This document shows, in pieces, positions 1 through 36,995 of a stretch of DNA of 36,995 nt. Source of the DNA: a virus (taxonomy: Duplodnaviria; Caudoviricetes). The translations under genes were made by a program, and so were the position numbers. The number at the start of each line of letters is the position of its first letter. The stretch's first letter is position 1. The DNA lies in the IMG/VR virus record IMGVR_UViG_3300028588_000055, positions 1 through 36,995 of that record; one strand, 5' to 3'. Below the pieces are notes generated by a model, which was not told where the DNA came from, ran no database searches, and saw nothing but the letters and a program-made list of their open reading frames with translations.

Positions 1-135
1 GAAGTGCAAATGCGGCGCATTCGGATCCGAATTGCCGGTCACACCCACGTAGCCGACCAGGTCACCACGTTTGACCGTCGCACCTTCCTGCAGCCCATCG
101 GCGTAGCGGTCCAGGTGCGCATAGTAATAGGCGTA
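1..135 (-). pseudogene. Displaced 3' part of the host M23 peptidase gene (continues left of the window)
   Basis: Minus strand reads [45 protein letters not shown], the same as the ORF at 36667-36990 except one V/I; no start codon, homology stops at 135. Confidence 0.88.
128..135. repeat. att core (left junction) TAGGCGTA
   Basis: Identical 8-mer at 36872-36879; homology to the right copy ends exactly here. Confidence 0.8.
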
Positions 136-191
136 AGGCAACAATCCCCAGACAGTCAGATGCCAGTAGGGCGGAACCGTCATCGAGCCTG

Positions 192-213
192 CGCGTGCAA
201 ATTTTGTGCAAAA
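192..213 (+). promoter_or_regulatory. Putative integrase arm-type sites (CGCGTGCAAA, TGTGCAAAA)
   Basis: Same motif is repeated about 7 times at 36475-36555 beside the integrase; lies ~60-80 bp inside the att core. Confidence 0.6.
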
Positions 214-237
214 TAGATGAAATTCGAAAGGAGAAAA

Positions 238-639
238 ATGCACACTTTGACATGCAAAGGCCGGGATGGCATTGCTCGTACGTTTTCCTACACTTACAAA
301 CTCGACCCTCTCAGTGAAGTATGGACTTTCAGAGTCCATACTACTCCGCCTCTCTCCAGTGGTGAGTTTTTTGAGCTGGCCGTCTCTGAAATCGAACCAG
401 GTACTGTTCGCGTGGTCATGGCCAACCATTATGGCGTTCCTGAATACACTGCAATGGGCATTCCTGAGGCCCTTTTGCCGGTTGTAAAGCAAGTGCTCCA
501 GATGGAAGTTGAGTCGAGTCCACCGGCGGGGCATGGAAACGTCTATCGCACAGCTGCCGCTACAAGCTACTGGAAGCGTTTAGAAACAACGGGTGGTGCA
601 GTCCATGATTCTCTAAGGGACGTGTATAGGGTCGTATGA
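238..639 (+). CDS. Hypothetical protein, possibly GNAT-like fold (accessory)
   Basis: ATG at 238 follows an AAAGGAG RBS; the [11 protein letters not shown] and AATSYWKRL segments loosely resemble GNAT motifs A/B. Confidence 0.55.
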
Positions 640-725
640 CCCAAATGTTTGTGAAGCAGCGTTCTTCGATTGCATTAATCATGTCCGATGAGTAACATCG
701 AAAGCCCGTTACGAGAATACGCCAG

Positions 726-1814
726 ATGAGCAAGTACACGTTTAAGGTCAACAAGCATTACACGCGTGCTGACGTCAAAGCCAGGTGTGGCCTTGACCCG
801 ACCACAAAAGGTGGCATTTGGGATACTGGCTATGTTGAGTACAACGGAGTCAGTTTCTTATTTTGCAACGTCGGGATTGCTGGCGCCACCGGTCACGATT
901 ACGACAATTACTTTGACGGGCCAGATCTGATCTGGCGGGCCAAGACCAACACCCACCTTGGACAACCCACAATTCAGCGGATGACTAGTCCGGGCGCTGA
1001 GGTGCACGTTTTCTGGCGAAACGACAGACGGGCGCCGTTCACCTACGCGGGGTTGGGGCAGGCTGCTGAGGTTGAAGACGTAACGCCGGTAAAGGTTCGT
1101 TGGCGGTTCAGTGAACCGCAGGACCAACGTAAGGACTCGCGCAGCGCAGAGCGCCTGCCGGCTGAGGTGTTCGGTAAGATTGGCGCAGACCATGTCTTAG
1201 AAGCTGTGCAACTGCTCTTGGACGGTTATGCTGACCATGCATTTGGACCATCGACCGACTACGATCTGATCGCGACTGACGATAAGCGACTACCGCCGAA
1301 GGCTGTATTTGGCCTTGCGGCTAAGCTTGCGCTTGGCTTTGAGGTGCTTCCAAAGCACTTTACTGCTGGCGAGACATCGACATGTTTCCGCATCCTGCGC
1401 CAGGCAGGGTATCAGGTTGTACCGAAAGGGCAGCAGGTCGAGTCGACTCCGCTGCTGTCCGAAAGCGATCAGGAGTGGGCAGAAGGGAAGCCGAAGCTGA
1501 TAACACACCTGGTACACGAGCGTGCCAAAGGGCTCGCACAGGCAAAGCGCAGCCAATTCAAGCGAGACCACGATGGAAAATTATTCTGCGAGCGCTGCAA
1601 GCTTGACCCTGTGGAAGTTTACGGTTCAGTCGATGGCGAAGCCTGCATCGAAGTACATCACAACGATGTCCACGTAAGCAACATGGACACCGAGCATAAG
1701 ACCCGGTTAGCCGCTTTGCAGTGCTTGTGCGCGAACTGCCACCGCTTCATTCACAGGCAGTTGAAACAAAATCAAAATAATTTGAGGAACGTAGATGCCG
1801 AGCAAGCTAGCTAA
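726..1814 (+). CDS. McrA-like HNH endonuclease (putative type IV, modification-dependent restriction enzyme) with an N-terminal DUF3427/SRA-like domain
   Basis: C-terminal EG..HER..CERC..IEVHH..LCANCHRFIH HNH zinc motif; middle STDYDL..PPKAVFG..FTAG segment resembles the ScoMcrA head domain; N-terminal DYDNYF..WR..VHVFWR..FTYAG. Confidence 0.8.
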   Translation: MSKYTFKVNKHYTRADVKARCGLDPTTKGGIWDTGYVEYNGVSFLFCNVGIAGATGHDYDNYFDGPDLIWRAKTNTHLGQPTIQRMTSPGAEVHVFWRNDRRAPFTYAGLGQAAEVEDVTPVKVRWRFSEPQDQRKDSRSAERLPAEVFGKIGADHVLEAVQLLLDGYADHAFGPSTDYDLIATDDKRLPPKAVFGLAAKLALGFEVLPKHFTAGETSTCFRILRQAGYQVVPKGQQVESTPLLSESDQEWAEGKPKLITHLVHERAKGLAQAKRSQFKRDHDGKLFCERCKLDPVEVYGSVDGEACIEVHHNDVHVSNMDTEHKTRLAALQCLCANCHRFIHRQLKQNQNNLRNVDAEQAS

Positions 1815-2085
1815 CGCCTTGTCTATTTGCTCCATCGCCTGCGGACTGCTTTCGGCAGCAAGCTGGTATCGAGGGAGTGCTGTCAAGGTGTCACATGAGA
1901 AAGCGATGCAAGCCCGTGCAAAGGAGGCTGCGAAACGCGGAGAAAAGCCCAACTTTGCGTCTGTCAGCCTAGACGGCTGGGACATGTCAGCAACGTTTGC
2001 AGCTCAATCTAAGTGGAATTCGATTGGAGCATTTTTTGCTGCCTGTTCGATTTTGGCGCAAACAATCGCGCAGATAATTGGTTGA
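1795..2085 (+). CDS. Small membrane protein (2 predicted TM helices)
   Basis: Hydrophobic N- and C-terminal segments; overlaps the end of the HNH gene. Confidence 0.55.
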   Translation: MPSKLANALSICSIACGLLSAASWYRGSAVKVSHEKAMQARAKEAAKRGEKPNFASVSLDGWDMSATFAAQSKWNSIGAFFAACSILAQTIAQIIG

Positions 2086-2118
2086 CAGCTTCCATACCAA
2101 CCACCCGTTCAAGAGCTG

Positions 2119-2505
2119 TTAGGTGTTTTTCCAGCTGAACAGCTCACCGTCATCAACCAACGGGGTGTTAGCCAGCGACTCTGCAAGCTGACGTTGCTTT
2201 GCCGATCTGGCTTTCAGTTTGGCTTTCGGCTGTACTTGGTGGACTGAAACCCAATCAAATTGGTCAATCCAGATTCGATCTTGCGCCTTATACGACCACA
2301 CGAGTGCGCGAACTACTTTCGTCTGGACTTGGTAACGAGCATTCAATGTCAACTGGCTTACGTCGAATGTGCTAGTTGATGGGATGCGCCATTGCTCTGA
2401 CTGCCCATTTGCAAACAACTCGTAAAAAACGGCCTTCGCTGTAATCTTGGTAATCACCACATCAAGTACGCGTGGTGTCAGTGGTTTGTTCGATTGCTTC
2501 GTCAT
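2119..2505 (-). CDS. Hypothetical phage protein
   Basis: 128-aa ORF with an AGGAG RBS and a TAAATA motif upstream on the minus strand (2553-2558). Confidence 0.7.
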   Translation of the reverse strand: MTKQSNKPLTPRVLDVVITKITAKAVFYELFANGQSEQWRIPSTSTFDVSQLTLNARYQVQTKVVRALVWSYKAQDRIWIDQFDWVSVHQVQPKAKLKARSAKQRQLAESLANTPLVDDGELFSWKNT

Positions 2506-2702: not shown

Positions 2703-2879
2703 ATGGCAACCGACAAAGCACTGCACATCGAGTATCTGGAACTGACGGCAACTGGCGCAACGATGGCTGAAGCACTGATTGAAGTTGCCAACATTAATGA
2801 GCTTGCGGTGTGTGATGTGTACGACGCGTTGCAACGTGAAGGCTTTGAAAACCCATGCGGTAATCTGTTCGACGCATAA
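2703..2879 (+). CDS. Small acidic hypothetical protein
   Basis: ATG 2703 with a GGAG RBS at 2692-2695; followed by a terminator. Confidence 0.65.
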   Translation: MATDKALHIEYLELTATGATMAEALIEVANINELAVCDVYDALQREGFENPCGNLFDA

Positions 2880-3078: not shown

Positions 3079-3272
3079 CTCATTTTTGCCATGATGATGA
3101 GTGATGACTCAACTTCTAGGTGTTAGATGGGTTTCCCAATAAGGAGATAATAAGAGTTGATGTTTTGAGCATCACTTCGTTCGCTCAAAACCAATCTTAC
3201 CTTCCTTCGGAAGTAGTTCTGGATAAACCCAGAAACCAATAACTGTTGGTCGCTACGCTCCTTCCCAGAAGA
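3079..3272 (-). repeat. Structured ~195-bp element, copy 1 (inverted relative to 13622-13817)
   Basis: Near-identical to the reverse complement of 13622-13817; several hairpins. Confidence 0.92.
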
Positions 3273-3479
3273 GCTGGTTGAAAGACACCGAGTGTATGAA
3301 CGCGCCGCGAGCTTGTGCGACTGCCTTAATAAGAGTTGATGTCTCGGCTAGTCAAGACATACAAATTGCAGCGGTACGCAATCTGCCTTATCCTAAATAC
3401 TTGCAGAGACAGGGAGTGCAATGCTTCCGCAACATTCGTTCTCGCTCCTAGTGTTATTTTTAGTCATACTGTTCACAAG

Positions 3480-3506
3480 AAAGCCCAGTTCGCGAACTGG
3501 GCTTTT
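3480..3506 (+). terminator. Rho-independent terminator (26-bp perfect palindrome)
   Basis: AAAGCCCAGTTCGCGAACTGGGCTTTT. Confidence 0.75.
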
Positions 3507-3620
3507 GCGTATGTGGCTGATGTCAAACTCTATTTTGAGCACGGTTTTCGAGCTGCTACCATAAATAACTCTGAACGCCTGAACAACGTTCAACTAAAAA
3601 TAATAATAGAGAGTATCCCG

Positions 3621-4430
3621 ATGACATTCCCATCATTTGGCGCAAGCGTCAGCGCCGACCCATTTAAGGACTTTTTCGCACACCAAGATCAACTGACGTA
3701 CTTGGACAGCAACCCAGAGCCAGCCGTTGAGGTCAAGCCTGAAGTCAAGCAGGAGACACGGCAAGGCGATCCGCACCGCATGAAGAAAGTAGGTGAGCAA
3801 CTGGTCGATGACCACGCGTCCAACTACTCGCTCCCCAACCTCGATCACATCTCGTGGATGCGCGTTGAGCTGTTCCACAACGAACCAGGCAGCGGGCTAA
3901 CTGAATGGGTGCTCAAGTTCATCATCAACGAATGCGCAGCGCCAGAGCATGTGAACACATCGCTTAGCACTCGCGAAGTCTACTTCAACCTGTTTTCAGG
4001 CTATGCATTCAAACGCGCACTCGGCAACTGCAAAGAGAACCCAACATTCCTGAATCGCTTTGCCAGGGTGTACGAGCGAGCAAAGGGCCGCTTAAAGGAG
4101 ATCAAGGCATGTCGGCCACGCGGACAAAAGACTATCGACGCGCCAATTGATCAAGTGGTTGCCGGTTTCTGCTACGTGAAGAAAGCACCTTGGGGCACTG
4201 TCACGTTCCCACAGCAGCAAGCGGTTTTGATGCCTTGGTCAATGCCGGGCCGAAAGCACGAAGCTATACTGTCATTGCGTCAGAACGATCAACGCTTCCG
4301 TACCATTATCATGCATGACATGCGCGGCCACATACCAGAAGGGAAAACGCAGCGCGACGAAAACGCCGCTGTTATGGTTGGCTATTTGGATCAGGTGGGT
4401 TACATGGAATGGCTGACGGCAAATCAGTAA
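3621..4430 (+). CDS. Hypothetical phage protein (269 aa)
   Basis: Probable start is ATG 3621 after GAGAG; the upstream ORF extension crosses a terminator; no family recognised. Confidence 0.7.
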   Translation: MTFPSFGASVSADPFKDFFAHQDQLTYLDSNPEPAVEVKPEVKQETRQGDPHRMKKVGEQLVDDHASNYSLPNLDHISWMRVELFHNEPGSGLTEWVLKFIINECAAPEHVNTSLSTREVYFNLFSGYAFKRALGNCKENPTFLNRFARVYERAKGRLKEIKACRPRGQKTIDAPIDQVVAGFCYVKKAPWGTVTFPQQQAVLMPWSMPGRKHEAILSLRQNDQRFRTIIMHDMRGHIPEGKTQRDENAAVMVGYLDQVGYMEWLTANQ

Positions 4431-4552: not shown

Positions 4553-4978
4553 ATGGCAAAGAACACCAACGCAGCAAACACCCCGGCAAACACCGAAGTA
4601 ACTGGCTTTCTGGCACAACTGGGGACGTTCGCAACTGCAATTACCGATTTGTCCCAAGTTGCTGTAAAACGCGACCCGGTAATTTACGCACGCACGAAAT
4701 TCGCGACTAACTGCGACGAGACGATCAAGCTGATTACGCAAGAAGCAGATCAGGGCAAGTTTTTCAAAAAAATCGCTGACGGCTTTTTGATTACGTTCCG
4801 CAACGGCAATTCGGCAATGCAGCTCAACGGCACGCAACACTTCAAAGTCGGCAACGTGGAAGCTGCAACCAAATTTGTGGAAGCTGCTAAAGCTGCTGCG
4901 GCAAATGGCGAACTCAATCAAGCATTCCGCGACACGATGCGCACCCCACGTAAAGCCAAAGACGAAACGCCAGCTTAA
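4553..4978 (+). CDS. Hypothetical phage protein
   Basis: GGAG RBS, repeated promoter module upstream, terminator downstream. Confidence 0.8.
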   Translation: MAKNTNAANTPANTEVTGFLAQLGTFATAITDLSQVAVKRDPVIYARTKFATNCDETIKLITQEADQGKFFKKIADGFLITFRNGNSAMQLNGTQHFKVGNVEAATKFVEAAKAAAANGELNQAFRDTMRTPRKAKDETPA

Positions 4979-5581: not shown

Positions 5582-6748
5582 TTACCTAATGTCTTTGCCT
5601 AATGAATGGAATTGCTCAAGCCTGCCGTCTGTATCAATCTTGAGGTTGAAATAATCGCCATTAAAGAAGACCGACATTGCTCCTTTCCGATTAAATGGCT
5701 TATTTTCTGTCTTGAAGTGTAATTCGATCTCGTCGTCAATGCTCATCAAGACCTTCTCTATCAAACTGCCGAGGTCTTTTGGTTTGTAAGGCAATGGAGT
5801 CTTTACCGCAAAATCACCTAGTTGAAACTCTTTGATGTGTCTCATTGTAATGTGCAGATAAGAAGTGAGGTCCCAGTAAATCTGCTTCTTCTTATGTAGC
5901 AAGATTCCAGGTTCAAATTTTAATGCGGACTCCATCAAAGATTTCAGGGCGTCTTGCGTGCGAGGCGATAGCGCTTTCGATAGATTGGATTTCTCTAGCT
6001 CTTCTGCGACAGCCATAATGACCCTAGCTTTCTTAATGAATGCCAAGTCGGACTTTTGCCTTTCCTCATCTTCGGTTAAGCGACGATGTCGTGCTTTGGC
6101 TTTAATTCTCGCAAAGCCTATGTTGACGTTTGTTTGCAGGTCTTCAATAGTAAAGCCAAAGTGATCCAAAAGTCTTCTATCGATCTGACCATAGACTCCA
6201 AGCAGTGTACCAACTAACTCTTCCTTCTCAAATGGGATCAGTTCATAACCACTATTGATTTTGCTGGCAAGGTAACCTATGAGTAGCTTACTCTCATCAA
6301 CATCGGAAAGATCAGCCTCTACATACACGACGTTTGGAATCTTTTTTTCTCCCGACTCATGGATTTCAACTGGGCGCGAATAGTGAAGATACGAGATACT
6401 CAGCAAATCCTCTAATAGGACACCTTTGTACTTCAGCGCTTTCTTTTGTTCAGTGCTTAAAAGCTGATCTGGTGAATCAATGCGTAAAATTGAAAGGTTT
6501 GGCAGCTCTGTTGGGTTATCAAGGCCCTCCAGGTAGTGCAAGGTCTGAAAAGTATTGAACAGTGTTCCAGTAATTACTGGTCCGTAAGTTTCATACGCTT
6601 TACTGTTTTCCTTGAAGAAGAAACTTGTCATGTACCCTCTGCGACCGACCATCTCATGTAAGTCATGCATGTGGAAGCAAGGACCTTCGACGTCAATTGA
6701 CGGAAGACCAACGTCAATTAAGTTGGTTATCTTGTATTGGCCAATCAT
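5582..6748 (-). CDS. AT-rich accessory protein, possible C-terminal nuclease/toxin domain
   Basis: 388-aa ORF with low GC, antisense to its neighbours; C-terminal HITMRH...GRLEQFH. Confidence 0.7.
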   Translation of the reverse strand: MIGQYKITNLIDVGLPSIDVEGPCFHMHDLHEMVGRRGYMTSFFFKENSKAYETYGPVITGTLFNTFQTLHYLEGLDNPTELPNLSILRIDSPDQLLSTEQKKALKYKGVLLEDLLSISYLHYSRPVEIHESGEKKIPNVVYVEADLSDVDESKLLIGYLASKINSGYELIPFEKEELVGTLLGVYGQIDRRLLDHFGFTIEDLQTNVNIGFARIKAKARHRRLTEDEERQKSDLAFIKKARVIMAVAEELEKSNLSKALSPRTQDALKSLMESALKFEPGILLHKKKQIYWDLTSYLHITMRHIKEFQLGDFAVKTPLPYKPKDLGSLIEKVLMSIDDEIELHFKTENKPFNRKGAMSVFFNGDYFNLKIDTDGRLEQFHSLGKDIR

Positions 6749-7259
6749 AATCAGAGCTCTCGAGTCAACTTAGGTAAAGCTTACCAAATGATACTACTGC
6801 CCTGTGAATAAGTTGAAATTGCATAAAAGCAATAGTCGCCAAAGGTCACGACGACGGTTCAGCTACCCTGTGTCGAACTGGCCTCAAACGCTGCTGGTAT
6901 GACGATCTATGACGTGCTGTGACGTGTTGCGGGTTTGATGCCCTGTGTACTAGCTGTGCTGGGCAGTGGGGAGGAATGCAGGAGGGCAGGGCATTTGTGC
7001 AGATTTTGCACGCGATGCCCAACTGTCGCGTAAGCGCTTGATTCTTCTGATGCTTTGTAGAGGTCTGTAATACTCAGCGTATTGCACAGGTCACGCTTTG
7101 TACACATGAGGTTACGTAACCTCATGATTCTTCTGATGTTTCTGGAGTTATTCACAAAATCGAACCGGCCTGTGAATAACCGGCCGATTCCTGATCCCGA
7201 AAACGCATGTCTGCTTGGCTTGGCTGCTGCCGTATAGGTGGCGTCAAACAAAAACTGAT
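6749..7259. other. Non-coding repeat/palindrome island (candidate origin or recombination site)
   Basis: DnaA-box matches at 6803-6811, 7148-7156 and 7171-7179; 22-bp perfect palindrome at 7105-7126; 14-bp direct repeat at 7039 and 7125; arm-like motif at 7004-7014. Confidence 0.5.
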
Positions 7260-7859
7260 TTAAATTTTGCTATCGGACTTATAGCTCGGTAGCCCTCTAC
7301 GATAAGCAAGGATAGCTTCGCTAACGTTCTCGACTGCGGCTAGATAATCTTGTGCAGCCTCAGCTGTCGGAATAACTTTCACATGAGCTACCTGATTACG
7401 AAGTTCTCTTAGGGAACGTACCACTGTAGCGATTTCTGGAGGCAGTTTTTCGACGATTTTGCTGTAGACTTTACCTGTGTTTTCTAATGGGTCGTCGCAA
7501 AGTCCGAGTTGAAGACCTAATCGGAAGAGTTCACCATCAATGCTTCCCCATCCTTGCAGAATCGCTCCAGATGGGTTCGCACGAGCGTTTAGCAGTTCGG
7601 TAACGATTTTCTGGCTTGGCTTTTCGACGGGCGCCTCTGTAGCGGTAGGAGTCTGCGTACTCGTACGTGCTTCGGACGCTTCAGCTAATGCCTGTTTGGT
7701 GGCAAGTTCAAATTCTGCTTCGACTGGACCGGCCTTGAACTTTTTCATGGTTGGTAAAAGGTCCAGAATTCTCTTTCGAAAAGCGAGACCTAAAATCAAA
7801 GCAACGCTAGGCCAAGCTAATGATTCAATGACCTTGCTGATAAAAGTTAGACGATCCAA
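7260..7859 (-). CDS. Membrane-anchored HEPN-like (DUF4145-type) protein
   Basis: N-terminal LAWP transmembrane helix; Rx4H motif RNQVAH. Confidence 0.7.
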   Translation of the reverse strand: MDRLTFISKVIESLAWPSVALILGLAFRKRILDLLPTMKKFKAGPVEAEFELATKQALAEASEARTSTQTPTATEAPVEKPSQKIVTELLNARANPSGAILQGWGSIDGELFRLGLQLGLCDDPLENTGKVYSKIVEKLPPEIATVVRSLRELRNQVAHVKVIPTAEAAQDYLAAVENVSEAILAYRRGLPSYKSDSKI

Positions 7860-7923
7860 TTTTTCCCCAAGCTAGATACGGTAGTGGTCCTGCTGGACTG
7901 ATACCGATCTAATCATTGCTGCA

Positions 7924-8655
7924 CTAGAAAATGTTTTTCGTGAGCCATTCGGCGCCAGCTATTAATTCTTCGACTTGTTCCTTCGTGGGATCAACATCCT
8001 TCTTGTGCGAACAGAGATTGCGCAGATCAGCCAGGTAACTGATTTTTCGCCAGCCAGCCGTGTCGGTCACCGCCGCAGCTTTAAGCGGGTCATTGAGATC
8101 AGCAATCGTCGGATTCTTTTTAGGAATTTTAATTTCGTGCGCATCTGCTACTTTTTGAAGATGGCCTTCGATAACAACTCCAATGAGAGCCCCAGCAGCA
8201 CGGGGACTTACCTTCAACAGTTGTTTGGCAACCGCCACTTCATTGTCTTGAAGTTCCGAATACAGCTCGCCTTCTATGTTGGCTAATACTGAATTTACAC
8301 GTCCGTTTAATGCATGAAGTATGCTTAATTGATTTAAAAAGCATTGAAGTACCTGTTTACGACTATCAAAGTCATCGTATCCATACCCTCCCGGAACTAC
8401 ACCCTTCATGTAGTCTTGAATAACGTAAGTGCCGTAACCAAGCGATTTTCGCTTTGGATCGATCTCGTAATAGCCGCGAAATTCAGCATACCGGTCTGGC
8501 GCAAGGGAAGAAACGGCTTTTACGGCTTTGGTGTACCACCCTTGATAGTCGTAATGAAACTGTTTGTCCTGCTCCTTTTGAAACGCAGTAGCAAGCTTTA
8601 CTCCTCCCTTATAAAGATCATCGAGCTCTTTGTGAATGGCTTCGCGCTTAGTCAT
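7924..8655 (-). CDS. HEPN-domain protein (candidate abortive-infection RNase)
   Basis: AAGALIGVVIEGHL helix and RNLCSH Rx4H motif, typical of HEPN domains. Confidence 0.75.
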   Translation of the reverse strand: MTKREAIHKELDDLYKGGVKLATAFQKEQDKQFHYDYQGWYTKAVKAVSSLAPDRYAEFRGYYEIDPKRKSLGYGTYVIQDYMKGVVPGGYGYDDFDSRKQVLQCFLNQLSILHALNGRVNSVLANIEGELYSELQDNEVAVAKQLLKVSPRAAGALIGVVIEGHLQKVADAHEIKIPKKNPTIADLNDPLKAAAVTDTAGWRKISYLADLRNLCSHKKDVDPTKEQVEELIAGAEWLTKNIF

Positions 8656-9135: not shown

Positions 9136-9196
9136 TTGATTGTCTCCCGATTGATAAATAGCCGACGGCTCATGATGAGCCAGCGAGGTTATTTAA

Positions 9197-11036: not shown

Positions 11037-11072
11037 TGAATAAATGCGCCACAAGAAGCGCATGGAGCATAA

Positions 11073-13169: not shown

Positions 13170-13205
13170 ATCAAATAAATAAGCGAAACTAACCTAATCA
13201 ATACG

Positions 13206-20000: not shown

Positions 20001-20004
20001 CGAA

Positions 20005-25252: not shown

Positions 25253-25255
25253 ACA

Positions 25256-27763: not shown

Positions 27764-28452
27764 GCTTGGTCGCCTTGTTCAGTTCCGCGAGAGGCTGCTA
27801 ACGCTGGGTATTCGTTTTCGAATCGTGCCCGCAGTTCTGGCAGCAAATTATGTTTTTGATCAGTTTGCAAATACCACTTGCGCCGCTTCTCTACTATGAA
27901 CGCAAAGTGGTTGATCAAGTCGCTCAGCTCTCCTTCACCAGCCTTGATCTGGGCGCGGATTTCGGCAGCGAGACGGCATGCTTCGTTTCCGTAATAAGCA
28001 AGGCGCTCTTGTTCAAACTGGTAGGCATCATCAAGGTCGGCCCAATACTGATACTGAGCCTTGATCCATGAATCGGCTTGATTGAAACGATTCACTAGGC
28101 TCTGGACTTTCGCTACGAACGGCACAGGCAGTAAAGTCCAATCGGGCTCGGGATCAAATTTGAATTCAATCGAGGACAGGTTTTCAAACGCAGAAGAGTC
28201 ATGCTGGCTACCATAACGCTCCATCGCTTCTTCGATGTCATAAAGCTGTTCGTTGCAACGCCTCGCGAATCCTTCAAGTTGAAGTACTACCTTCAGGTAC
28301 ACATGGTCAATTTTGTGGGATTCCTTTCTGGCTTCCTTCGCTTGCTCCATCCGCTTAGCATAGTAGTTCCAACCTACATTCATGAGGGCGCTTACAACTG
28401 CACTTGACATCACAAGTGCGAAATAATTCACGGGTTCCCCTGGTGTCGCCAT
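27760..28452 (-). CDS. N-terminally anchored hypothetical protein (moron)
   Basis: Probable start is ATG 28452 with an AGGA RBS; TM segment YFALVMSSAVVSALMNVGW; 4-bp overlap with the next gene. Confidence 0.7.
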   Translation of the reverse strand: MATPGEPVNYFALVMSSAVVSALMNVGWNYYAKRMEQAKEARKESHKIDHVYLKVVLQLEGFARRCNEQLYDIEEAMERYGSQHDSSAFENLSSIEFKFDPEPDWTLLPVPFVAKVQSLVNRFNQADSWIKAQYQYWADLDDAYQFEQERLAYYGNEACRLAAEIRAQIKAGEGELSDLINHFAFIVEKRRKWYLQTDQKHNLLPELRARFENEYPALAASRGTEQGDQA

Positions 28453-28583
28453 TGATGAGAGTCCTAGATAACTTTTGGAGTAAGACGGATTAGTAAGTGT
28501 ACGTTGTTCATTGTCCGGTAGGCAATAGTCCAGATGACTAAATAGCTGATCAAGCCCATAACAATAATAAGAGGCAAACAACT

Positions 28584-31568
28584 ATGTCATTCAACGGTTC
28601 GGGGACTTGGGTTCCCCCAGCAGGTCAGCCAGTCGCGAGCGGTACGGTCATCCAATCGACCACGCACAACACGCTGGTTACCGACATCGGCAATAGCTTT
28701 AACAACACGCTGCCGCGTGACGGCCAAGCCCCAATGCAAGGCCAACTCAAGATCACGGACGGCACAAGTTCGATCCCTGGCATTGGCTTCAACAGCGAAG
28801 CATCTACGGGCATGTTTCGCCCAACTCCAGGCGTACTGGGTTTGTCGGTGTCTGGAGTTGAAGGCCTGCGCCTAAACAGTGCGGGTCGCATCGTGATCGG
28901 CAGTACAGACGATGACGGTACGAATAAGCTGCAAGTCAACGGCCCAGCCAAAGTGACCGGCACTGCTACATTGGCAAGCACGCTAAACGTAGCTGGCGCG
29001 ACGAGCCTTTCGACCTTGAATACGTCAGGTGCCGCAACATTGGGCTCTACGCTCAATGTGACCGGTGCTGTAACGGCTGCATCGTTCAATGGTCCACTTA
29101 CCGGCAATGTAACCGGCAACGTCACCGGCAATGCCAGTGGTAACGCCGGTAGCGCGACCAAGCTGCAAATCGCTCGCAGCATCAATGGCGTGGCCTTCGA
29201 CGGCTCGGCCGACGTCACGGTTGCCGACTCAACTAAGCTGCCTTTGACTGGCCACGTTGGCATGCTGAACGGCGGCACGTCAGTTGACATCAGCAACACT
29301 AGTCTGAACGGCGCAACCAAAGCTGGTTTTTATCGCGGGAAGGCCATGACCGGCGCCCCTGACACCGGCTGGTGGTATGTGCTGGTTGAAAGCCATGATG
29401 CCACTGCGGAAGGTGCGGCTGGATGGTCGAAGCAGACCGTTACAGCTTATGGATCGGAAAATAGTTATCCGCCCGGTACGATCTTTGTACGTGTGCGCTC
29501 GGGCACTGCGGCCTGGGGCACATGGTTGCGCCAAGGCGGCGCAAACGGCGATACAACGCTCGATTTCTCGGCGCGCACCTTGGCTTCGGCAAGCACCGTT
29601 GCCGCGTCAGGTGGAGGCGGCTTCTTGAGCACTACCTATGCGAGCAACGCGCGTAATCCGATCTGGCGTTTCGGTAACGCTGATGGCTACGGTCTGAGCT
29701 ACTTCCAAGGTAGTTCTGGTATTGGTAGCCAAGACACTATCGGCTTGCACTTCGGCACGCCAACTGCACTGGCAGCGCCTTTTGCTTTCCGCCAGGATGG
29801 TACAGCCTGGTTTGGCAATTCGCTGAACGTGAACCAAGGTGGATTGCTATTGGATGCAGGTGGCAACCTGAATTTTAAGGCGAAGGCAGGCACTACGGAT
29901 GCAGGCGATGCTGTGTGGCTGGATGAAACGGGCGCAGAACAACACCGTCTGTGGTCCGATTTCGCCCAAAGCTCGTTGCTCTATCGCTACAAGGGCGGCA
30001 CGGCTTACAAGCTCTGGCATGAAGGCAATTTGAACCCGAGCGAAAGCGCTGACCCAAGCAGCATCGTGCGTCGAACCACGAACGGCTACATCAACGGCAA
30101 CTACATCTGGATGTCAGATGACGGCAACCCAGGCGGCAATCCAAACCCGGTCTCAGCAGTCATCACGAAACGCGGTGACAACTACTACCGTTCCTCGGAC
30201 GCGCTGTCAGTGAAGAACTTCCTTGGCCTGCGCAATCTGACAGTGAAACAGATCGGAGCCAGCGAGGATTTAAATGCTTACTATGCCACCCCGGGCTTCT
30301 TTGGTATGGCCGGTCATCCTGTTAATTCACCTATTGGCGACGGCCAGTTGCTAGTGATGGGAAGTCCTGACAAGGACACGACTGGCATGATCGCCATGCC
30401 GTATAGCAGCTCGGACGCATACATTCGTTCAGCCAACAACTATGGCGCAAACTGGAATCCGTGGACTCGCGTTCTGACGGAGTCTAATCCCACTGTGTGG
30501 CGTTCGTATGTTTCGCGTGTGCCAGACAACGGTGTGGTGCTGGAGACTTTTAACACCACGGCTACCAGCCAACCTCGCCAGTTCTACATTACTCATTCAT
30601 TAGCTGACGCGATAATTGGTAATGACCGTGGCGAACTGTACATGAATGGCGCTGCTTACCGTCTGCGTTTGGGTACGGGGCAGGTCAGCACGTTCAACTG
30701 GCAAGGTCAAAGCTACCAGCCTACATGGCTTTGGGGCGGTAATGATGCCTCCAGTATGAATGTGTACAACCCGTTGAACTTCGACGTGTCCACTGCATGG
30801 CGTCTGCGAACAGATCGCACCAACTACAGTGGTGCCACTGACGGTAACGTCGTCGGTCAGCTGATGTGGAAGAACTTCGGTAACAACCACACGATTTTCG
30901 ATGCCAGTAATGGCACGTCGCCAACTGGAGCGGCTATCGACAAAACCAATGCGCAAATTGCGTGGGGCTTGAACTATCCAACCCTGATGGGCTGGAATGG
31001 TTCTAACACGTATGGCGTACGAGTCGATTCCGCTCGCTGGGCAGACGGGGCGGGTTCTGCAAATGTCTTGAATGGTGCTGCACACACTAATGGCTCAGAT
31101 GGTTGGTTCCGTTCATCGGGCAACTGTGGTCTCTACAACGAAACGTACGACACCGGTATCTACGCCACGCAATGGCATCAAGTACGCACTTACAACGGCA
31201 CGAGCTTCTACTCGGAAGGCGATTTGTCGGCTGCCGGTAACGTCGGCGCGTACTCGGATGAACGCCTGAAAACCAACTGGCGTGATGTCAAGCCGAACTT
31301 CGTTAAGCGACTTGCCAAGGTCAAGTCTGGCGTGTACGACCGTACCGATGTGACGCTTACTCAGGCTGGTGTCAGCGCACAGTCCTGGCGTCGTCTGCTG
31401 CCACAAACGGTCATGAAGGACAAGCAGGGCATGCTGTCGGTGAACTACGGGGCTGCTGCTCTGGTTTCGTCGGTTGAGCTGGCTAAGGAAGTCGTGCAAT
31501 TGAAGCAAGACCTTACCAAAGCCATGAAGCTGATCGAGAAATTGACCAAGAAGCTGGGGGGCGTATGA
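28584..31568 (+). CDS. Tail fibre with C-terminal peptidase S74 intramolecular chaperone
   Basis: Podovirus anchor N-terminus, ATKLQIARSINGVAFDG fibre motif, YSDERLK...VNYG and a terminal coiled coil. Confidence 0.9.
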   Translation: MSFNGSGTWVPPAGQPVASGTVIQSTTHNTLVTDIGNSFNNTLPRDGQAPMQGQLKITDGTSSIPGIGFNSEASTGMFRPTPGVLGLSVSGVEGLRLNSAGRIVIGSTDDDGTNKLQVNGPAKVTGTATLASTLNVAGATSLSTLNTSGAATLGSTLNVTGAVTAASFNGPLTGNVTGNVTGNASGNAGSATKLQIARSINGVAFDGSADVTVADSTKLPLTGHVGMLNGGTSVDISNTSLNGATKAGFYRGKAMTGAPDTGWWYVLVESHDATAEGAAGWSKQTVTAYGSENSYPPGTIFVRVRSGTAAWGTWLRQGGANGDTTLDFSARTLASASTVAASGGGGFLSTTYASNARNPIWRFGNADGYGLSYFQGSSGIGSQDTIGLHFGTPTALAAPFAFRQDGTAWFGNSLNVNQGGLLLDAGGNLNFKAKAGTTDAGDAVWLDETGAEQHRLWSDFAQSSLLYRYKGGTAYKLWHEGNLNPSESADPSSIVRRTTNGYINGNYIWMSDDGNPGGNPNPVSAVITKRGDNYYRSSDALSVKNFLGLRNLTVKQIGASEDLNAYYATPGFFGMAGHPVNSPIGDGQLLVMGSPDKDTTGMIAMPYSSSDAYIRSANNYGANWNPWTRVLTESNPTVWRSYVSRVPDNGVVLETFNTTATSQPRQFYITHSLADAIIGNDRGELYMNGAAYRLRLGTGQVSTFNWQGQSYQPTWLWGGNDASSMNVYNPLNFDVSTAWRLRTDRTNYSGATDGNVVGQLMWKNFGNNHTIFDASNGTSPTGAAIDKTNAQIAWGLNYPTLMGWNGSNTYGVRVDSARWADGAGSANVLNGAAHTNGSDGWFRSSGNCGLYNETYDTGIYATQWHQVRTYNGTSFYSEGDLSAAGNVGAYSDERLKTNWRDVKPNFVKRLAKVKSGVYDRTDVTLTQAGVSAQSWRRLLPQTVMKDKQGMLSVNYGAAALVSSVELAKEVVQLKQDLTKAMKLIEKLTKKLGGV

Positions 31569-32047
31569 CACTCCAAGCAAGCGGTCCTATCAGCTTTAGT
31601 GATGTTCTGGGCGAGCTGCGTATTGCGAACCCAGGGCGAGCCAGTGCTATTTCGCTGAACGATAGCGATGTGCGGGCTTTGGCCGGAAAGCCATCCGGTT
31701 CGATCTCATTAAGTGATCTTTACGGAAAAAGCAGTTTCACGGCAACTGGTCATGACGCTACTGGCTCAGGTATTTCATCAACTTCAGGCGGCACAATTAG
31801 TGTGTCTCCATACGTAACAGTCATTGGCGGCTCTAATGTGACCTATCAGTGGAGCATTACAGCTAGCAACATTAGTGTGACGCTTGGTAATGCAAATAGC
31901 TCGTATTGCACGGTTTCGCGCTCATACGCAAAACTCTCTGACGGATTCTTTAACGTCACACTGCAATGCGTCGTCACAAACGGTAACGGCGCGTCAATCA
32001 CCATTTCCGGCATTAACGCCTACGGCGAATGGTCTAGCTACAGGTAA
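31565..32047 (+). CDS. Tail-fibre tip adhesin-like protein
   Basis: N-terminal SGPISFSDV..ISLSDLYGKS attachment motif followed by a beta-rich domain; overlaps the fibre stop codon. Confidence 0.7.
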   Translation: MTLQASGPISFSDVLGELRIANPGRASAISLNDSDVRALAGKPSGSISLSDLYGKSSFTATGHDATGSGISSTSGGTISVSPYVTVIGGSNVTYQWSITASNISVTLGNANSSYCTVSRSYAKLSDGFFNVTLQCVVTNGNGASITISGINAYGEWSSYR

Positions 32048-32053: not shown

Positions 32054-32284
32054 ATGATTTTTTTCAAACATTTAATAACTGGCGCAGATAATCAAACGGT
32101 TGATGTTGCGCGTGTCCTCTGGATTCTTGGTGTAATCGCATTCTTGTTCCTTAGTGGCCTCGACGTTTATAAGTCGGGTCACTTTGACATGGCTAATTTT
32201 TCGCTTGGTTATGGCGGCCTTCTGGCTGCTGGTGCTGCTGGCGTCAAGATCAAAGAGAGCAGTGAGCCACGTATAAATAAATGA
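32054..32284 (+). CDS. Holin-like membrane protein
   Basis: 76 aa, 2 TM helices, charged C-terminus, at the lysis-module position. Confidence 0.6.
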   Translation: MIFFKHLITGADNQTVDVARVLWILGVIAFLFLSGLDVYKSGHFDMANFSLGYGGLLAAGAAGVKIKESSEPRINK

Positions 32285-32336
32285 AAAGTGCCAGGGCACT
32301 AAACATCAAATGCAATTACATCAGCGGGGTAACAAA

Positions 32337-32549
32337 ATGAGTAGTGAAGCAACACAAGCAATTAAGGGAGTTGTGGACGCCCTAGCCGCAAGCGTGACGG
32401 TATTAACTGTATTCAGAGTTCTACCGGGCATTGCTGCTGCATTCGCTATCGTTTGGTACACCGTAGGGCTGTACGAGAAGTTTACAGGTCGTCAGTTTAG
32501 CGAGTCTCGTTTCGCCCGATGGCTGACAGGTAAATCAAAGTCTGAATAA
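32337..32549 (+). CDS. Small membrane protein (holin-like)
   Basis: Hydrophobic core LPGIAAAFAIVWY and a basic tail; probable start is ATG 32337. Confidence 0.6.
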   Translation: MSSEATQAIKGVVDALAASVTVLTVFRVLPGIAAAFAIVWYTVGLYEKFTGRQFSESRFARWLTGKSKSE

Positions 32550-33007: not shown

Positions 33008-33325
33008 ATGACGAAACACACTATCACCGGCAACCAAGTAATCATCCAGCAAATCCAGCTTAGCATTCCGGAACGCTTCGCTTCATACATGCGCATCATC
33101 GCGCCTCAACTGCGCGAAAAAGGCTATCAGTACTTTGTTGCATGCCCAACTGACGAATACATCGAGCACTGCGAATGGTGCGCCGATAACTGTTCTGACT
33201 ACACACTCGCACATCACGACGTATGGCAGGTTGCGCCAGTGTATCCACGCGCATTCGCAAACCAAGCTGACGCTGTACTGTTCATGCTGACGTTTGCTGC
33301 AACCCAGATTGGAGGCGCAAAGTGA
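33008..33325 (+). CDS. Small hypothetical protein with a WC...F.NQADAVLFML motif
   Basis: GGAGGAG RBS; TAAATA upstream. Confidence 0.75.
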   Translation: MTKHTITGNQVIIQQIQLSIPERFASYMRIIAPQLREKGYQYFVACPTDEYIEHCEWCADNCSDYTLAHHDVWQVAPVYPRAFANQADAVLFMLTFAATQIGGAK

Positions 33326-33501
33326 TGCCTGACTATCGATTCTATGTGTTGGTCCGCAAAGCAGACGAGCACCGCAGTGCTGGATTCTGGGGAATGGCGA
33401 GAGGAGGGCAGCTCATCGAGCCGCACGATAAAGGTTGGCTAGTGAGGTTTGAGCAGGAGGGCGACGTAATAAGATTTTTAAACTTCGTGAAGAACAACTA
33501 A
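33325..33501 (+). CDS. 58-aa hypothetical protein (not in the ORF track)
   Basis: TGATG overlap and GGAGG RBS; reads MPDYRFYVLV...VRFEQEGDVIRFLNFVKNN. Confidence 0.65.
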   Translation: MPDYRFYVLVRKADEHRSAGFWGMARGGQLIEPHDKGWLVRFEQEGDVIRFLNFVKNN

Positions 33502-33503
33502 AC

Positions 33504-33528
33504 AAAAGGGAGCATTGCTCCCTTTTTT
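33504..33528 (+). terminator. Rho-independent terminator
   Basis: AAAAGGGAGCA-T-TGCTCCCTTTTTT. Confidence 0.8.
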
Positions 33529-33576
33529 ATTTAATAAATAAATCTGCAAATTGCACATTACAAAGGAGAGAAGGCA

Positions 33577-33753
33577 ATGACCCAAGACGAAATTAACAAA
33601 GCAGTGGCGAAAGCGATTGAGGCCCGAAAGCTTATCCAGGAACTGCGTGAGGCTGGCTTGATTCGCGACAGCTACTTTCCGGCACTCACATCTGGATTGA
33701 GCGCAGTAGAGAAGAAGTTGAAACGTACGCCTCCAAGCAAGGAGGACAAGTAA
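33577..33753 (+). CDS. 58-aa hypothetical protein (not in the ORF track)
   Basis: AAAGGAG RBS; TAAATA at 33535; reads MTQDEINKAVAKAIEARKLIQELREAG... Confidence 0.65.
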   Translation: MTQDEINKAVAKAIEARKLIQELREAGLIRDSYFPALTSGLSAVEKKLKRTPPSKEDK

Positions 33754-34042: not shown

Positions 34043-34840
34043 ATGAATACCGGAGCACAAACCACCGATCAAAACGTAACGCAGCCCGCAGGTGATGAGG
34101 TCAGCGCGCAATCTGCTGATTCATCCGGCACGCCTGCCGAACAAGCTGAACCGCCTGTATCCACGACTTCAGATGAATCTCCGAGGCCACACCCAATGAT
34201 TGAAACGTTATTCGAAATGTGGGATGAAATGGATGGGCCTATCGTCGCAGTGACCACTCTGCTGCATGAGGCATGGTGGGCAAGCAGTCTCCTCGAAAGG
34301 GAAGCCAAGCTTAAGCAGGCATTAGCGCTGCTTCCGGGGGCGGCAGAAAGCATTAAAGAGGGGATCAAACTGAATGGACAGCAGAGGGCGATTCAAGTAC
34401 GCCCGAAGCTGGCCGAAATCGCAAAGAGCGAAGGCTTTCCAAGTGTTGAGGCCATGCTCGAAGCAGGCGGTTTCAAGATGGAAAACCGTCAGGGCAGCCA
34501 GCAAAGTGATCCCGGTCACACTCCTGCTACTAAGAGCGAGCCGCAACCTGCTGCCGAGAAGTCTAGAGCAGGGCGTAATCTCTATCCAGACGCGCAGACG
34601 GTCTACGAGTATCTTGCTTATCCTGACCATAACGATTATCAGTGGGGTTACACGCAGAGTCTGCGTAGTCTGACTGAGAAGAAACACCCTTGGGCAAAGA
34701 AGCTCAAAAATGGTAAGCCTGATCCCGCCCATTTCCGCAAGGCCGATGAGAATGACATCGCGGAAATGCAACGTCGGCGTGAACAGAGGATTGCCGAAGT
34801 GAACGCGATGAGGGAGGCGCGTGCAGCAAAAAAGACGTAA
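34043..34840 (+). CDS. Hypothetical protein with a weak H-NS/MvaT-like oligomerisation segment
   Basis: AGGA RBS before ATG 34043; KLAEIAKSEGFPSVEAML followed by a linker and a basic domain. Confidence 0.65.
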   Translation: MNTGAQTTDQNVTQPAGDEVSAQSADSSGTPAEQAEPPVSTTSDESPRPHPMIETLFEMWDEMDGPIVAVTTLLHEAWWASSLLEREAKLKQALALLPGAAESIKEGIKLNGQQRAIQVRPKLAEIAKSEGFPSVEAMLEAGGFKMENRQGSQQSDPGHTPATKSEPQPAAEKSRAGRNLYPDAQTVYEYLAYPDHNDYQWGYTQSLRSLTEKKHPWAKKLKNGKPDPAHFRKADENDIAEMQRRREQRIAEVNAMREARAAKKT

Positions 34841-35304: not shown

Positions 35305-35311
35305 GCACGGC

Positions 35312-35352
35312 AACGCAAAAGGCCCCTAGCGAACCAGGGGCCTTTGCGTTTT
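35312..35352. terminator. Bidirectional terminator between convergent genes
   Basis: AACGCAAAAGGCCCCT...AGGGGCCTTTGCGTTTT. Confidence 0.8.
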
Positions 35353-35407
35353 AGGAGGACATACACATGCGAACAGCGCGGCCTCATGACTTACCGCGCA
35401 TGTCTAT

Positions 35408-36442
35408 TTATGTTCCGTCGAACACGGCAATAGCGTGCTCTGCAACCTCGCTCGGCATCGCGTGCAAATACACGAGCGTGCTGTTGATGTTCTTGTGGCC
35501 CAGGAACTGCTGTACTTTGCGGATGTCCATACCAGCGCGAAGGAGGCGCGTAGCGGCCGAGTGACGGTAGGTATGACTTGTGACCTTGCCAGCATCGAAG
35601 TTAAGGCCTGCGCGCTTTGCTGTCTCAATCACCCAGCGACCGCTATTTTTAGGCTTGTTGTGTTTGGCCGAGAAGACCCAGTTGTCGATCTTCGTTGCAA
35701 ACCGGCGCTCTAGAACAGCGCGTAGCGCCTTGGTCATCATCAGCAGCGTGTCGTTGCAGTTCTTGAGGCGGCGAACCAAGATCGTGTTGTTTGCAAAGTC
35801 AACGTCTGACCAGCGCAGGTTGTGTGCCTCGTTGATACGTGCGCCCAGGTGCAGCAAGCAGATGAGCACATCTTGATTGTCCTGCCGCTGCGCATCGCTT
35901 TCAGGTGTTTTGCCGGGATACTTGGCGTTTGGGCTGGTTGCCGCAAGCATCAAGGCTTCTTCCTTTTCGCTGATGACACGGAAACGGGTACGCTTTGGTT
36001 TGATGCGGTTGAGTTTGGGGCCGGCTTGCATCTTGCGTTCGATGCAGTGGTTGACTAGTGCGTTCCAGTACGTGACGAACACAGAGATAGTGTTCTGTGA
36101 TGCGCCTTCGGCCAAGCGGGTATTAACGACTGCTTCCAGTTCGGCTTTCGTCAGCGCTTGCATTTTCACGTTAGGCAGCGCGTCTTTCCAGTGCTGAAGG
36201 TGTTGACGCGCTGATACAAAGCTGGCCTTGTGTTTGCGTACTTCCAGAAAGCTGTCGATTGCTTCATACAATGTGACAGGGCGTTCGCCTTCGTAGACGA
36301 CTGTCTGCACAGCTTCGTGTTCCCACTTCTTGGCCAGTGTCTCGGCAAGCTTCTTGTCAGCAGTCTTAGTCGATCGGTTGAACATTACGCCGTCAACCAT
36401 CTTGCGCCAGTACCAGATTCCGTTTCGATTGATTAATGCCAC
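35408..36442 (-). CDS. int: Tyrosine recombinase / integrase
   Basis: Catalytic R (GARINE), K (RLKN), HxxR (HTYRH), LGH and Y; N-terminal arm-binding beta domain. Confidence 0.95.
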   Translation of the reverse strand: MALINRNGIWYWRKMVDGVMFNRSTKTADKKLAETLAKKWEHEAVQTVVYEGERPVTLYEAIDSFLEVRKHKASFVSARQHLQHWKDALPNVKMQALTKAELEAVVNTRLAEGASQNTISVFVTYWNALVNHCIERKMQAGPKLNRIKPKRTRFRVISEKEEALMLAATSPNAKYPGKTPESDAQRQDNQDVLICLLHLGARINEAHNLRWSDVDFANNTILVRRLKNCNDTLLMMTKALRAVLERRFATKIDNWVFSAKHNKPKNSGRWVIETAKRAGLNFDAGKVTSHTYRHSAATRLLRAGMDIRKVQQFLGHKNINSTLVYLHAMPSEVAEHAIAVFDGT

Positions 36443-36474
36443 CTGCGTTCTCCACTAGGAAACGCAACACTGTC

Positions 36475-36555
36475 CGCGTGCAAAGAGCTTGCAGAATCCC
36501 TGTACAAACGCGTGCAAAAAACGTGCAAAAAATTTGTACAAAACGCGTGCAAAAA
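36475..36555 (+). repeat. Array of GT(G/A)CAAA(A) direct repeats, putative arm/regulatory sites
   Basis: CGCGTGCAAA at 36475, 36509 and 36544; CGTGCAAAA at 36522; TGTACAAA at 36501 and 36535. Confidence 0.8.
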
Positions 36556-36666
36556 CAGTATTGCTGAGACCTAGGAGAATGCGTTCGTGTTGACAAAAGA
36601 TCAACATTGGAGTGACAGTCTTGCTGCCGTATTAACAGCCTACGACAGCAATTTGGAAGGGAAAAA

Positions 36667-36995
36667 TCAGTTCGACAGCAAGGGATACGGATTCACCGGC
36701 GTCCCCTTCCACCACTGCTTCTCCGGCGTCAGCTCGAACACCGCAAAATGCAAATGCGGCGCATTCGGGTCCGAATTGCCGGTCACGCCCACGTAACCGA
36801 TCAAATCGCCGCGCTTGACCGTCGCACCTTCCTGCAGGCCGTCGGCATAGCGGTCGAGGTGCGCATAATAGTAGGCGTACTTCTCGGTCGGATCGAACAC
36901 GTAGGCGGTGAGGCCGCCCGGCTTGCTGGTGAACAGCTTGACCAGCTTGCCGTCAGCCGCGGCCAGCACCTTGGTGCCCTTGGGCGCCATGATGT
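36667..36995 (-). CDS. Host M23-family metallopeptidase (5' part outside the window; 3' end supplied by the element)
   Basis: D-I-M-APKGT.V.AAADG, YAHL and GNS..PHLHF M23 motifs; high-GC host-like codon usage. Confidence 0.9.
36872..36879. repeat. att core (right junction) TAGGCGTA
   Basis: Identical to 128-135. Confidence 0.8.

Follow-up and report, generated by a model that had tools for sequence, protein, structure and literature searches.

The P4, phage-inducible chromosomal island (PICI), capsid-forming PICI (cf-PICI) and PICI-like element (PLE) families are integrated satellites with defense cargo, and PLE, which parasitizes virulent phages, encodes the nickase NixI that is aimed at the helper. 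Phage-inducible chromosomal minimalist islands (PICMI) are further integrated satellites with defense cargo that parasitize virulent phages (PMC10803314). MulchRoom and MiniFlayer, two satellite viruses of Streptomyces, encode virion parts and no replication genes, and MulchRoom has an integrase (PMC10690885). Ando and Aci01-2-Phanie are described as further satellite viruses (PMC13587820). Among eukaryotic systems, mavirus and EMALE04 are integrated, silent, virion-encoding elements that carry the late promoter motif of their helper (PMC10945749). Here, we analyzed a 36,995-nt stretch of viral DNA (IMG/VR record IMGVR_UViG_3300028588_000055, hereafter the window), which contains one complete integrated short-tailed phage (podovirus) of 36.7 kb. 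Its gene content and promoters suggest an integrated satellite virus that depends on a large lytic phage of the T4-like kind and is switched on by the late sigma of this helper, a reading that we consider fairly likely. Genes are named by their first coordinate in the window (Table 1).

Like MulchRoom, MiniFlayer, Ando and Phanie, which depend on a large virulent helper, the element has its own packaging and capsid genes and no recognizable primase or replicase. The initial annotation saw here an inversion of the usual satellite dependency, which would not be the first case, given the description of MulchRoom and MiniFlayer (PMC10690885). Virion-encoding satellites without replication genes are already known, and the promoter wiring appears to be the new part: no satellite using T4-type late promoters was found in the literature searched (open-access texts, without supplements), and PMC10690885 and PMC13587820, in which the word 'promoter' is absent, report neither promoter sharing nor a helper-sensing mechanism for their satellites. 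An ATAT purge was not met in that literature either, although no search was aimed at it. MulchRoom and Ando combine an integrase with an Lsr2-like protein, a parallel to the H-NS-like gene in the window. However, satellites of the MulchRoom kind carry 20-26 genes (13 kb in Ando) and, apart from Phanie, are Gram-positive, whereas the clade described here is 36 kb in size; MulchRoom and Ando are described as needing a helper tail, whereas the element encodes a full podovirus tail; and MulchRoom keeps a helix-turn-helix (HTH) regulator. Defense cargo, T4-type boxes and loss of the tetramer ATAT distinguish this clade, whose dependence on a helper is a prediction, from the MulchRoom kind. No sequence kinship to the Streptomyces satellites was seen in the capsid search, and a similar way of working is possible. 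The division of labor is opposite to that in PICMI, PLE, P4, PICI and cf-PICI, which encode a primase or Rep and a regulator themselves and use the capsid and/or tail of the helper; the element has no match to a primase, Rep or AlpA-type regulator (PICI, cf-PICI, PICMI and P4 criteria) and encodes a full head, an adaptor, a nozzle-like gene and a fiber. The closest mechanistic parallel is provided by mavirus and EMALE04, which are eukaryotic and encode their own polB, and in which the reactivation predicted here has been demonstrated.

The element is bounded by the 8-bp core TAGGCGTA at 128-135 and 36872-36879, which lies within a 134-nt direct repeat (88% identical) of an M23 peptidase gene. 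Massilia suwonensis has an orthologue of this gene without insertion (79% identity over 320 nt), therefore the host is probably a Massilia-like bacterium; the sequencing run that best matches the window has leaf litter metagenome as its recorded origin. In agreement with the initial annotation, the att ends are intact as judged by the core repeats, the tyrosine integrase is an intact PF00589 member, and the virion module at 9197-32047 (terminase, portal, capsid, tail and fiber by PHROG) is unbroken. The gene at 17878-19524 is labeled 'amidase' in PHROGs, yet it is homologous (28%) to a virion-module gene of the Stenotrophomonas phage BUCT555. Because BUCT555 has an endolysin separate from this homologue, we interpret the gene as a tail nozzle rather than a lysin; the nozzle-like gene has no sequence match in PDB. 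The virion genes are under purifying selection, with ratios of nonsynonymous to synonymous divergence (dN/dS) of ~0.1-0.2 where measurable (one value is 0.37) and synonymous sites near saturation (pS 0.55-0.89). No excision or inversion joint was found in the contigs of four DNA runs, which cannot exclude such joints.

With the capsid as query, 26 loci with 76-85% identity were found in IMG/VR; among cultured bacteria, M. suwonensis KACC 12635 was the one carrier. Ten relatives were used for comparison, comprising nine whole IMG/VR records (four of them 97-100% complete by CheckV) and the M. suwonensis prophage (G001); together with the window, these 11 genomes represent about six lineages, many near-identical, and are not 11 independent cases. 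The virion module and gene 8719 are common to all ten relatives, and 2119, 2703, 4553 and 33008 occur in most. Of 15 records searched for the integrase, 4 have it, including 3 of the 4 near-complete ones, and att repeats bound G410, G413 and the cultured copy G001 at sites unlike that of the window. The distribution is patchy, with a close copy in only 1 of 401 sampled genomes of the family. At a larger distance, a capsid tblastn search against 50,697 phage records gave 55 matches, with no Streptomyces phage in the organism tally. Autonomous virion relatives include Mx8 of Myxococcus and BUCT555 (capsid ~50%); BUCT555 and three Burkholderiaceae prophages (G365, G265 and G236; capsid 39-49%) possess genes for replication and lysins, to which regulator-like genes (by eye) are added in the three prophages. 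Phages of the Mx8/BUCT555 type have a homologous virion (capsid 39-50%) but their own replication enzymes, regulators and endolysin. In addition, we observed a 33-kb sister element in an alphaproteobacterial bin (G503:C22; L139, L082, L140) with TAAATA wiring, an integrase, an H-NS-like gene and a remote 8719 homologue.

Functions for control, replication and lysis were sought in several family collections. Among 42 window open reading frames (ORFs), no CI/Cro, Rep, helicase, primase, recombinase, Q/N or sigma match was found in PHROGs and Pfam, and 26 window ORFs and one ORF of a relative likewise gave no repressor, replication enzyme, antiterminator, sigma or free endolysin in NCBIfam. In seven relatives, 140 non-core ORFs (136 of the 187 listed plus four added, with near-duplicates, core homologues and some antisense frames left out) were compared with Pfam, and none belongs to a CI, Rep, helicase, primase or lysin family; these ORFs matched TIR, HNH, H-NS, kinase, AAA, Schlafen and similar cargo, and a single LysR match at the edge of G409 is probably host flank. 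The complete members of the clade have no helicase, primase or endolysin candidate of suitable size in common, and the window has no Rfam or tRNA match. The absences listed in the initial annotation are confirmed at the sequence level for the repressor, Rep, helicase, primase, recombinase, Q/N and sigma, but lysis functions are not wholly missing, nor perhaps are replication functions. The two holin-like genes are kept in 10/11 and 11/11 genomes (32054 has no match in cultured phages), and the last of the three ejection-type proteins (25256) has a glucosaminidase domain (PF01832), so only a free endolysin is missing from the lysis set. The proposed check of the orphan folds gave no clear match for 8719; for 2119 it gave a generic oligonucleotide-binding (OB) fold (best Z 7.8, rmsd 2.7, 69 residues aligned) of the kind found in single-stranded DNA-binding protein (SSB) and PriB, and one replication-associated gene may be present. 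Because holin-like and SSB-like genes are kept, lysis and replication would be at most partly borrowed.

The hexamer TAAATA occurs at 21 sites in the window versus 8.25 +/- 2.9 expected, a number not reached in any of 100 shuffles, and 17 of the 21 sites are located within 170 nt upstream of a same-strand gene. The earlier statement that this box precedes many genes is thus supported, but the box is not the full T4 form TATAAATA, which has one site in the window. Letter permutations of the hexamer (AAAATT, AAATTA, AATTAA, ATTAAA, TAAAAT, TATAAA and TTAAAA) have 0-4 of 8-14 sites upstream of same-strand genes; those with the same AT-rich core or leader-like sequence score higher (ATAAAT 16/20, AATAAT 10/15, TAATAA 5/12, ATAATA 4/8). 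TAAATA is found before terS, portal, 15019, 16434, fiber and 8719 in all 11 genomes, and before scaffold and adaptor in 10 of them; it is missing upstream of every integrase, 4553 and 2703 copy. Two intragenic boxes, in terL and in the PAPS (3'-phosphoadenosine 5'-phosphosulfate) reductase-like gene, are held by rare codon choices at synonymous positions (the background of the needed codon pairs is ~0.07 and ~0.16, respectively); two spurious terL matches and one spurious PAPS match were removed from the conservation counts. Several cargo insertions stop just upstream of TAAATA. Positions -40 to -1 are flat in base composition, with no -35 conservation, and no conserved upstream activator site was found at the boxes of the 11 genomes. 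A non-T base after TAAATA was considered as a promoter feature and rejected, because it is a consequence of ATAT loss. Outside the clade, BUCT555 has no TAAATA site; BUCT555, G365, G265 and G236 lack the box before terminase, portal and capsid, and neither this wiring nor ATAT loss occurs in these four genomes, Mx8 having been compared by its capsid match alone.

The late promoters of T4 are -10-only elements read by gp55 (PMC7892883), and ATAAATA precedes structural genes of the jumbo phage CBB (PMC5259590). As in the T4 family (T4, CBB and PhiW-14), the boxes of the element are -10-only, have no -35 and lie 30-140 nt before virion genes. The interpretation of the box as T4-type is strengthened by PhiW-14, a T4-like Delftia phage from the same host order (Burkholderiales), which has 12 TAAATA sites in 50 kb versus 0.5-1.8 expected; its boxes are 21-101 nt ahead of 8 of 30 genes checked, mostly late ones, in the same reduced form and with the same spacing. 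PhiW-14 has an annotated gp33; its gp55 was not among the genes of the 50 kb examined. Phages of the T4 family encode their own late sigma, whereas none is detectable in the element. A gp55 profile built from five sequences recovered each held-out member at E <= 3e-32 in a leave-one-out control, whereas its best match among the 14,151 six-frame segments of the elements was no better than E 7; hhalign of seven orphan families against gp55 gave a probability of at most 0.8%. This check for a hidden sigma, suggested by the initial annotation, thus revealed no gp55-like protein, and neither gp55 nor gp33 encoded by the element itself was detected with sequence profiles.

Loss of ATAT extends from the window to the clade, in which 26 loci (partly overlapping the whole records) contain 15 sites versus 472 expected, most of the residual sites being outside the conserved core. 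In contrast, ATAT is normal in 140 kb of the M. suwonensis chromosome (101 versus 105), in 58 distant loci (2197 versus 2278) and in autonomous relatives. A word that is kept by the host and lost only by the prophage would be hard to attribute to a host restriction system, although methylation-protected host sites are possible. Because ATAT is gone from the element and normal in the host chromosome, the simplest reading is that the purge reflects a nuclease acting when the host chromosome is expendable, which could be the host-DNA-degrading enzyme of the helper or a weapon of the element itself.

Based on these observations, we propose that the element would remain mostly silent until a helper supplies a gp55-type late sigma predicted to read TAAATA. 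Before infection, host RNA polymerase would transcribe the integrase, 2703, 4553 and the defense cargo from sigma70-like promoters. Helper infection would trigger excision; the circle would be copied by the helper replisome together with the SSB-like protein of the element, from one of two candidate cis elements; the virion genes would be transcribed by the late holoenzyme of the helper; and the holin-like proteins would act with the helper endolysin. ATAT would have been purged because it is cut during co-infection, either by the host-DNA-degrading enzyme of the helper or by an anti-helper enzyme encoded by the element. Excision, replication and the origin of the ATAT purge are the weakest steps of this scheme. 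In its fullest form, the element would be a repressor-less bacterial provirophage that has a T4-like late sigma as its sole on-switch, makes its own complete infectious particles, has erased ATAT in response to a helper nuclease or for the use of an anti-helper nuclease, and provides Massilia-like hosts with transmissible defense; this combination is plausible, though somewhat short of likely.

The satellite reading has to be weighed against three others. An autonomous temperate phage with unrecognizable controls, in which an orphan (4553, 8719 or 2703) reads TAAATA, 2703 acts as a repressor and an ATAT-cutting nuclease of the phage degrades host DNA, is unlikely in our estimation, although 4553 and 2703 are conserved under purifying selection (8/11 and 9/11 genomes), share a sigma70-like promoter with the integrase and have a common upstream palindrome by eye. 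Self-protection from such a nuclease would also explain the ATAT purge, and the universal 8719 has no fold match; however, 8719 is itself behind TAAATA in every genome, the orphans are unlike gp55 both by profile and by hhalign, and this reading is further disfavored by the lack of a conserved activator site and of a helicase, primase or endolysin candidate of suitable size in all complete members. Less probable still is an element that depends on the host and needs no helper, in which host enzymes start replication at a DnaA-box origin, TAAATA is read by a host sigma or in an alarm state, and the holins and glucosaminidase accomplish lysis. The clade-specific element with its inverted DnaA-box-like pair, the SSB/PriB-like protein, the holin-like genes and the PF01832 domain agree with this scheme, which nevertheless leaves the ATAT loss unexplained; the M. 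suwonensis chromosome has few TAAATA sites (15 within 140 kb), a T4 gp55 query found no match in that genome, and we know of no host sigma with such -10-only specificity. A deletion-decayed or domesticated prophage of the gene transfer agent (GTA) kind, which has lost its early and lysis modules, is largely refuted and scarcely credible. In its favor, these modules do occur in distant phages that share the virion, and in M. suwonensis the copy is marked by an insertion sequence close to the capsid gene and by what may be a spanin remnant; but the absences and TAAATA positions are shared by all close relatives across saturated synonymous divergence, with the virion genes under selection, integration sites differ, cargo turns over and the distribution is patchy. 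Close relatives with normal early modules, which the initial annotation named as the sign of decay, were not found among those compared. Decay is rejected because the close relatives share the absences under selection while distant phages with the same virion keep the modules, and the absences are best described as a clade-wide property of an intact, selected lineage. Gene transfer agents are immobile, vertically inherited and without att or integrase, whereas the clade has an integrase, att repeats at different sites and a patchy distribution.

Several observations weigh against the satellite reading as well. Either 2703 or 4553 is possibly a hidden repressor or activator, and the fold search with 8719 (best Z 5.8, rmsd 3.4, 54 residues aligned) gave no clear match and excludes no family; fold models cover 2119 and 8719, whereas 4553, 2703, 3621, 33008 and 34043 were compared by sequence profile only. 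The DnaA-box-like pair points to replication driven by the host and not by a helper replisome. TAAATA wiring of the same type is present in the sister element G503, which does not avoid ATAT (196 versus 191 on both strands) and has a helicase-like ORF (Walker A by eye); therefore, neither replication borrowing nor ATAT loss is tied to the promoter. PhiW-14, which modifies its thymines, is only mildly ATAT-poor (92 versus 140) and is not shown to infect Massilia. The gp55 query of the M. suwonensis genome was run without a positive control genome. Finally, no helper was identified: the ~200-nt repeat, the conserved non-coding element, the small-RNA motif, 33008 and 31565 have no match in a large phage. 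The repeat region and the hairpin region of a relative gave no cultured-phage match; the repeat motif matched one clade member in IMG/VR and, in metagenomes, the contig of the window itself and three chance matches, one of them in a 326-kb contig whose matching region was ordinary coding DNA. The conserved element, the small-RNA motif and 33008 matched clade members only (33008 had no match in cultured phages), and 31565 matched only in contigs of at most 55 kb; pattern-seeded searches are insensitive here, since those with the integrase and 3621 did not recover known relatives. In favor of the satellite reading, the 25 best cultured matches of the G410 HNH gene are in 157-193-kb phages and are mostly annotated as homing endonucleases, with T4-like phages over-represented.

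Table 1. Sequence features of the window, in order of position
Feature	Position	Strand	Remarks
Absence of tetramer ATAT from the whole element	1..36995		0 sites versus 50.6 expected
attL core TAGGCGTA	128..135		In M23 peptidase gene; host 3' remnant to left
Arm-type-like repeats GCGTGCAAA / TTTGTGCAAA	192..213; also 36475-36556 and ~7000		Putative integrase-arm role
Cargo nuclease, DUF3427-like N-terminus and HNH	726..1814	+	PF11907 below cut-off
Core gene, OB-fold, SSB/PriB-like, acidic-aromatic tail	2119..2505	-	TAAATA upstream in 8/8 genomes
Core gene, 58 aa, sigma70-like promoter and upstream palindrome, no TAAATA	2703..2879	+	HTH-like by eye only
Hairpin-rich inverted repeat of ~200 nt, copy 1	3079..3272		Copy 2 at 13622-13817; z = -3.0; candidate origin or inversion site
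Candidate small RNA: TAAATA, ~110 nt, terminator-like hairpin	3394..3510	+	No ORF
Unknown 269-aa protein behind TAAATA, candidate initiator	3621..4430	+	Only G410/G413 have a remote homologue at the equivalent position
Core early gene, weakly DUF6641-like	4553..4978	+	Shares its sigma70-like promoter and palindrome with 2703
Variable cargo: an unknown protein of 388 aa and two HEPN-like proteins (7260, 7924)	5582..8655	-	DUF4145 weak
Clade-specific conserved non-coding element	6790..7255		Inverted DnaA-box-like pair TTATTCACA ... TGTGAATAA, arm-like repeats
Core orphan, basic helical protein, divergent from terS	8719..9135	-	Own TAAATA in 11/11 genomes
Back-to-back TAAATA boxes (9155 +, 9195 -) before terS and 8719	9150..9200		Predicted to drive both
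terS, terL, portal, FmdB-like zinc ribbon, scaffold, small gene 15019, major capsid	9197..16266	+	PHROGs/Pfam
TAAATA inside terL coding sequence	10939..10944	+	Kept in 20/20 homologous terL ends
16434, SU10-type adaptor, putative nozzle, GNAT, three ejection-type proteins, PAPS-reductase-like gene	16434..27412	+	PHROGs/Pfam
TAAATA inside PAPS-reductase-like gene	23079..23084	+	Kept in 14/14 homologues
Cargo matching PADLOC candidate defense PDC-S67	27760..28581	-	E 2.4e-8
Tail fiber with S74 chaperone; accessory fiber gene	28584..32047	+	PHROGs/Pfam
Two small membrane proteins (32054, 32310), holin-like by position and hydrophobicity	32054..32549	+	No family match; no endolysin beside
Small TAAATA-preceded genes	33008..33753	+	33008 clade-specific, 8/11 genomes
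H-NS-like layout by eye	34043..34840	+	Family in G001, G402, G410, G413, weakly G409
Tyrosine integrase, intact	35408..36442	-	PF00589; no TAAATA upstream
Replacement 3' end of M23 gene, element-supplied	36667..36879	-	Ends in attR core at 36872-36879

Other genes of the element include the remaining orphans and the cargo. Gene 8719 is an orphan of the clade, with 58 clusters and a confident helical model; no usable Atlas match was found for it, and neither 8719, 2119, 4553, 2703 and 3621 nor the cargo nuclease has a sequence match in PDB. A role of 3621 as a universal Rep was rejected, as it is present in only 3 of 12 elements searched. The HEPN-like proteins 7260 and 7924 have RxxxxH motifs, which we take to be the HEPN motif, and an anti-helper role of the cargo is plausible on the basis of weak family matches. 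Gene 34043 has no family match in NCBIfam, and its membership in G409 is weak because the family profile includes its own hits. The PAPS-reductase-like gene (22453-23208) lies among the ejection-protein genes of every close relative (75-81% identity) and may have a role in DNA or protein modification.

Two non-coding regions are candidate cis elements. The ~200-nt inverted repeat is present in the window, G410 and G413, with a shorter version in G001; in G001, G410 and G413 it brackets a block of integrase, att and early gene that is inverted between lineages. The clade-specific element (~460 nt) has eight IMG/VR matches, all in clade members. Either of them could be the origin, and the clade-specific element could alternatively be a recombination site; GC skew located no origin, and the density of GC-GNA-GC mini-hairpins did not single out the repeats. 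Two leaders in the virion module are conserved: a hairpin-like sequence GACCTCGATTAGAAACGGTCGC at 15250-15290, directly before the capsid gene in all genomes compared, is a possible translational control element, and the ~100 nt (16340-16430) between TAAATA and 16434 are possibly structured. The window has three ORF-less units that run from TAAATA to a terminator, at 3394-3510 (+), 32841-32926 (+) and 35410-35309 (-), which are unlike the RNA of the relatives in sequence. The latter, a candidate kissing-loop small RNA in a TAAATA-to-terminator unit of ~110-130 nt, occurs in G001, G402, G407, G409, G410, G413 and L156 (for example, L102:3240-3370) and is absent from the window. The 7-nt loop of its first hairpin and the terminator loop are complementary in all seven copies, which comprise three sequence variants with compensatory changes, and in IMG/VR the unit was found only within the clade.

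Individual relatives show additional features. In the M. suwonensis copy (C14:1-50 and C1:1-70), the 15019 homologue is broken at its end, directly ahead of the capsid gene, by inverted repeats that are presumably IS3-like and account for the contig break, and an 88-aa ORF found only in this copy, L088:11288-11554 (-), is a possible o-spanin remnant. Post-capsid cargo at L002:5225-6735 and L006:6978-8414 resembles, by eye, type VI secretion Hcp and an effector-immunity-like pair. A roughly 90-95% identical relative in two DNA runs, compared over positions 1-15000 and 22000-36995 of the window, keeps the core and 3621 and has swapped cargo blocks at 1766-2138, 5522-6784, 27347-28539, 28999-32417 and 33742-35315.

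M. suwonensis KACC 12635 is a cultured carrier of the clade, and the placement of TAAATA and the loss of ATAT are two sequence fingerprints that would predict properties of the helper or of the nuclease. If the proposed scheme is true, a prophage that encodes a complete virion can do without a repressor and use a shared late promoter to detect a lytic phage, as mavirus does with CroV, and 'defective' prophages without early genes can be intact, selected parasites of other phages.

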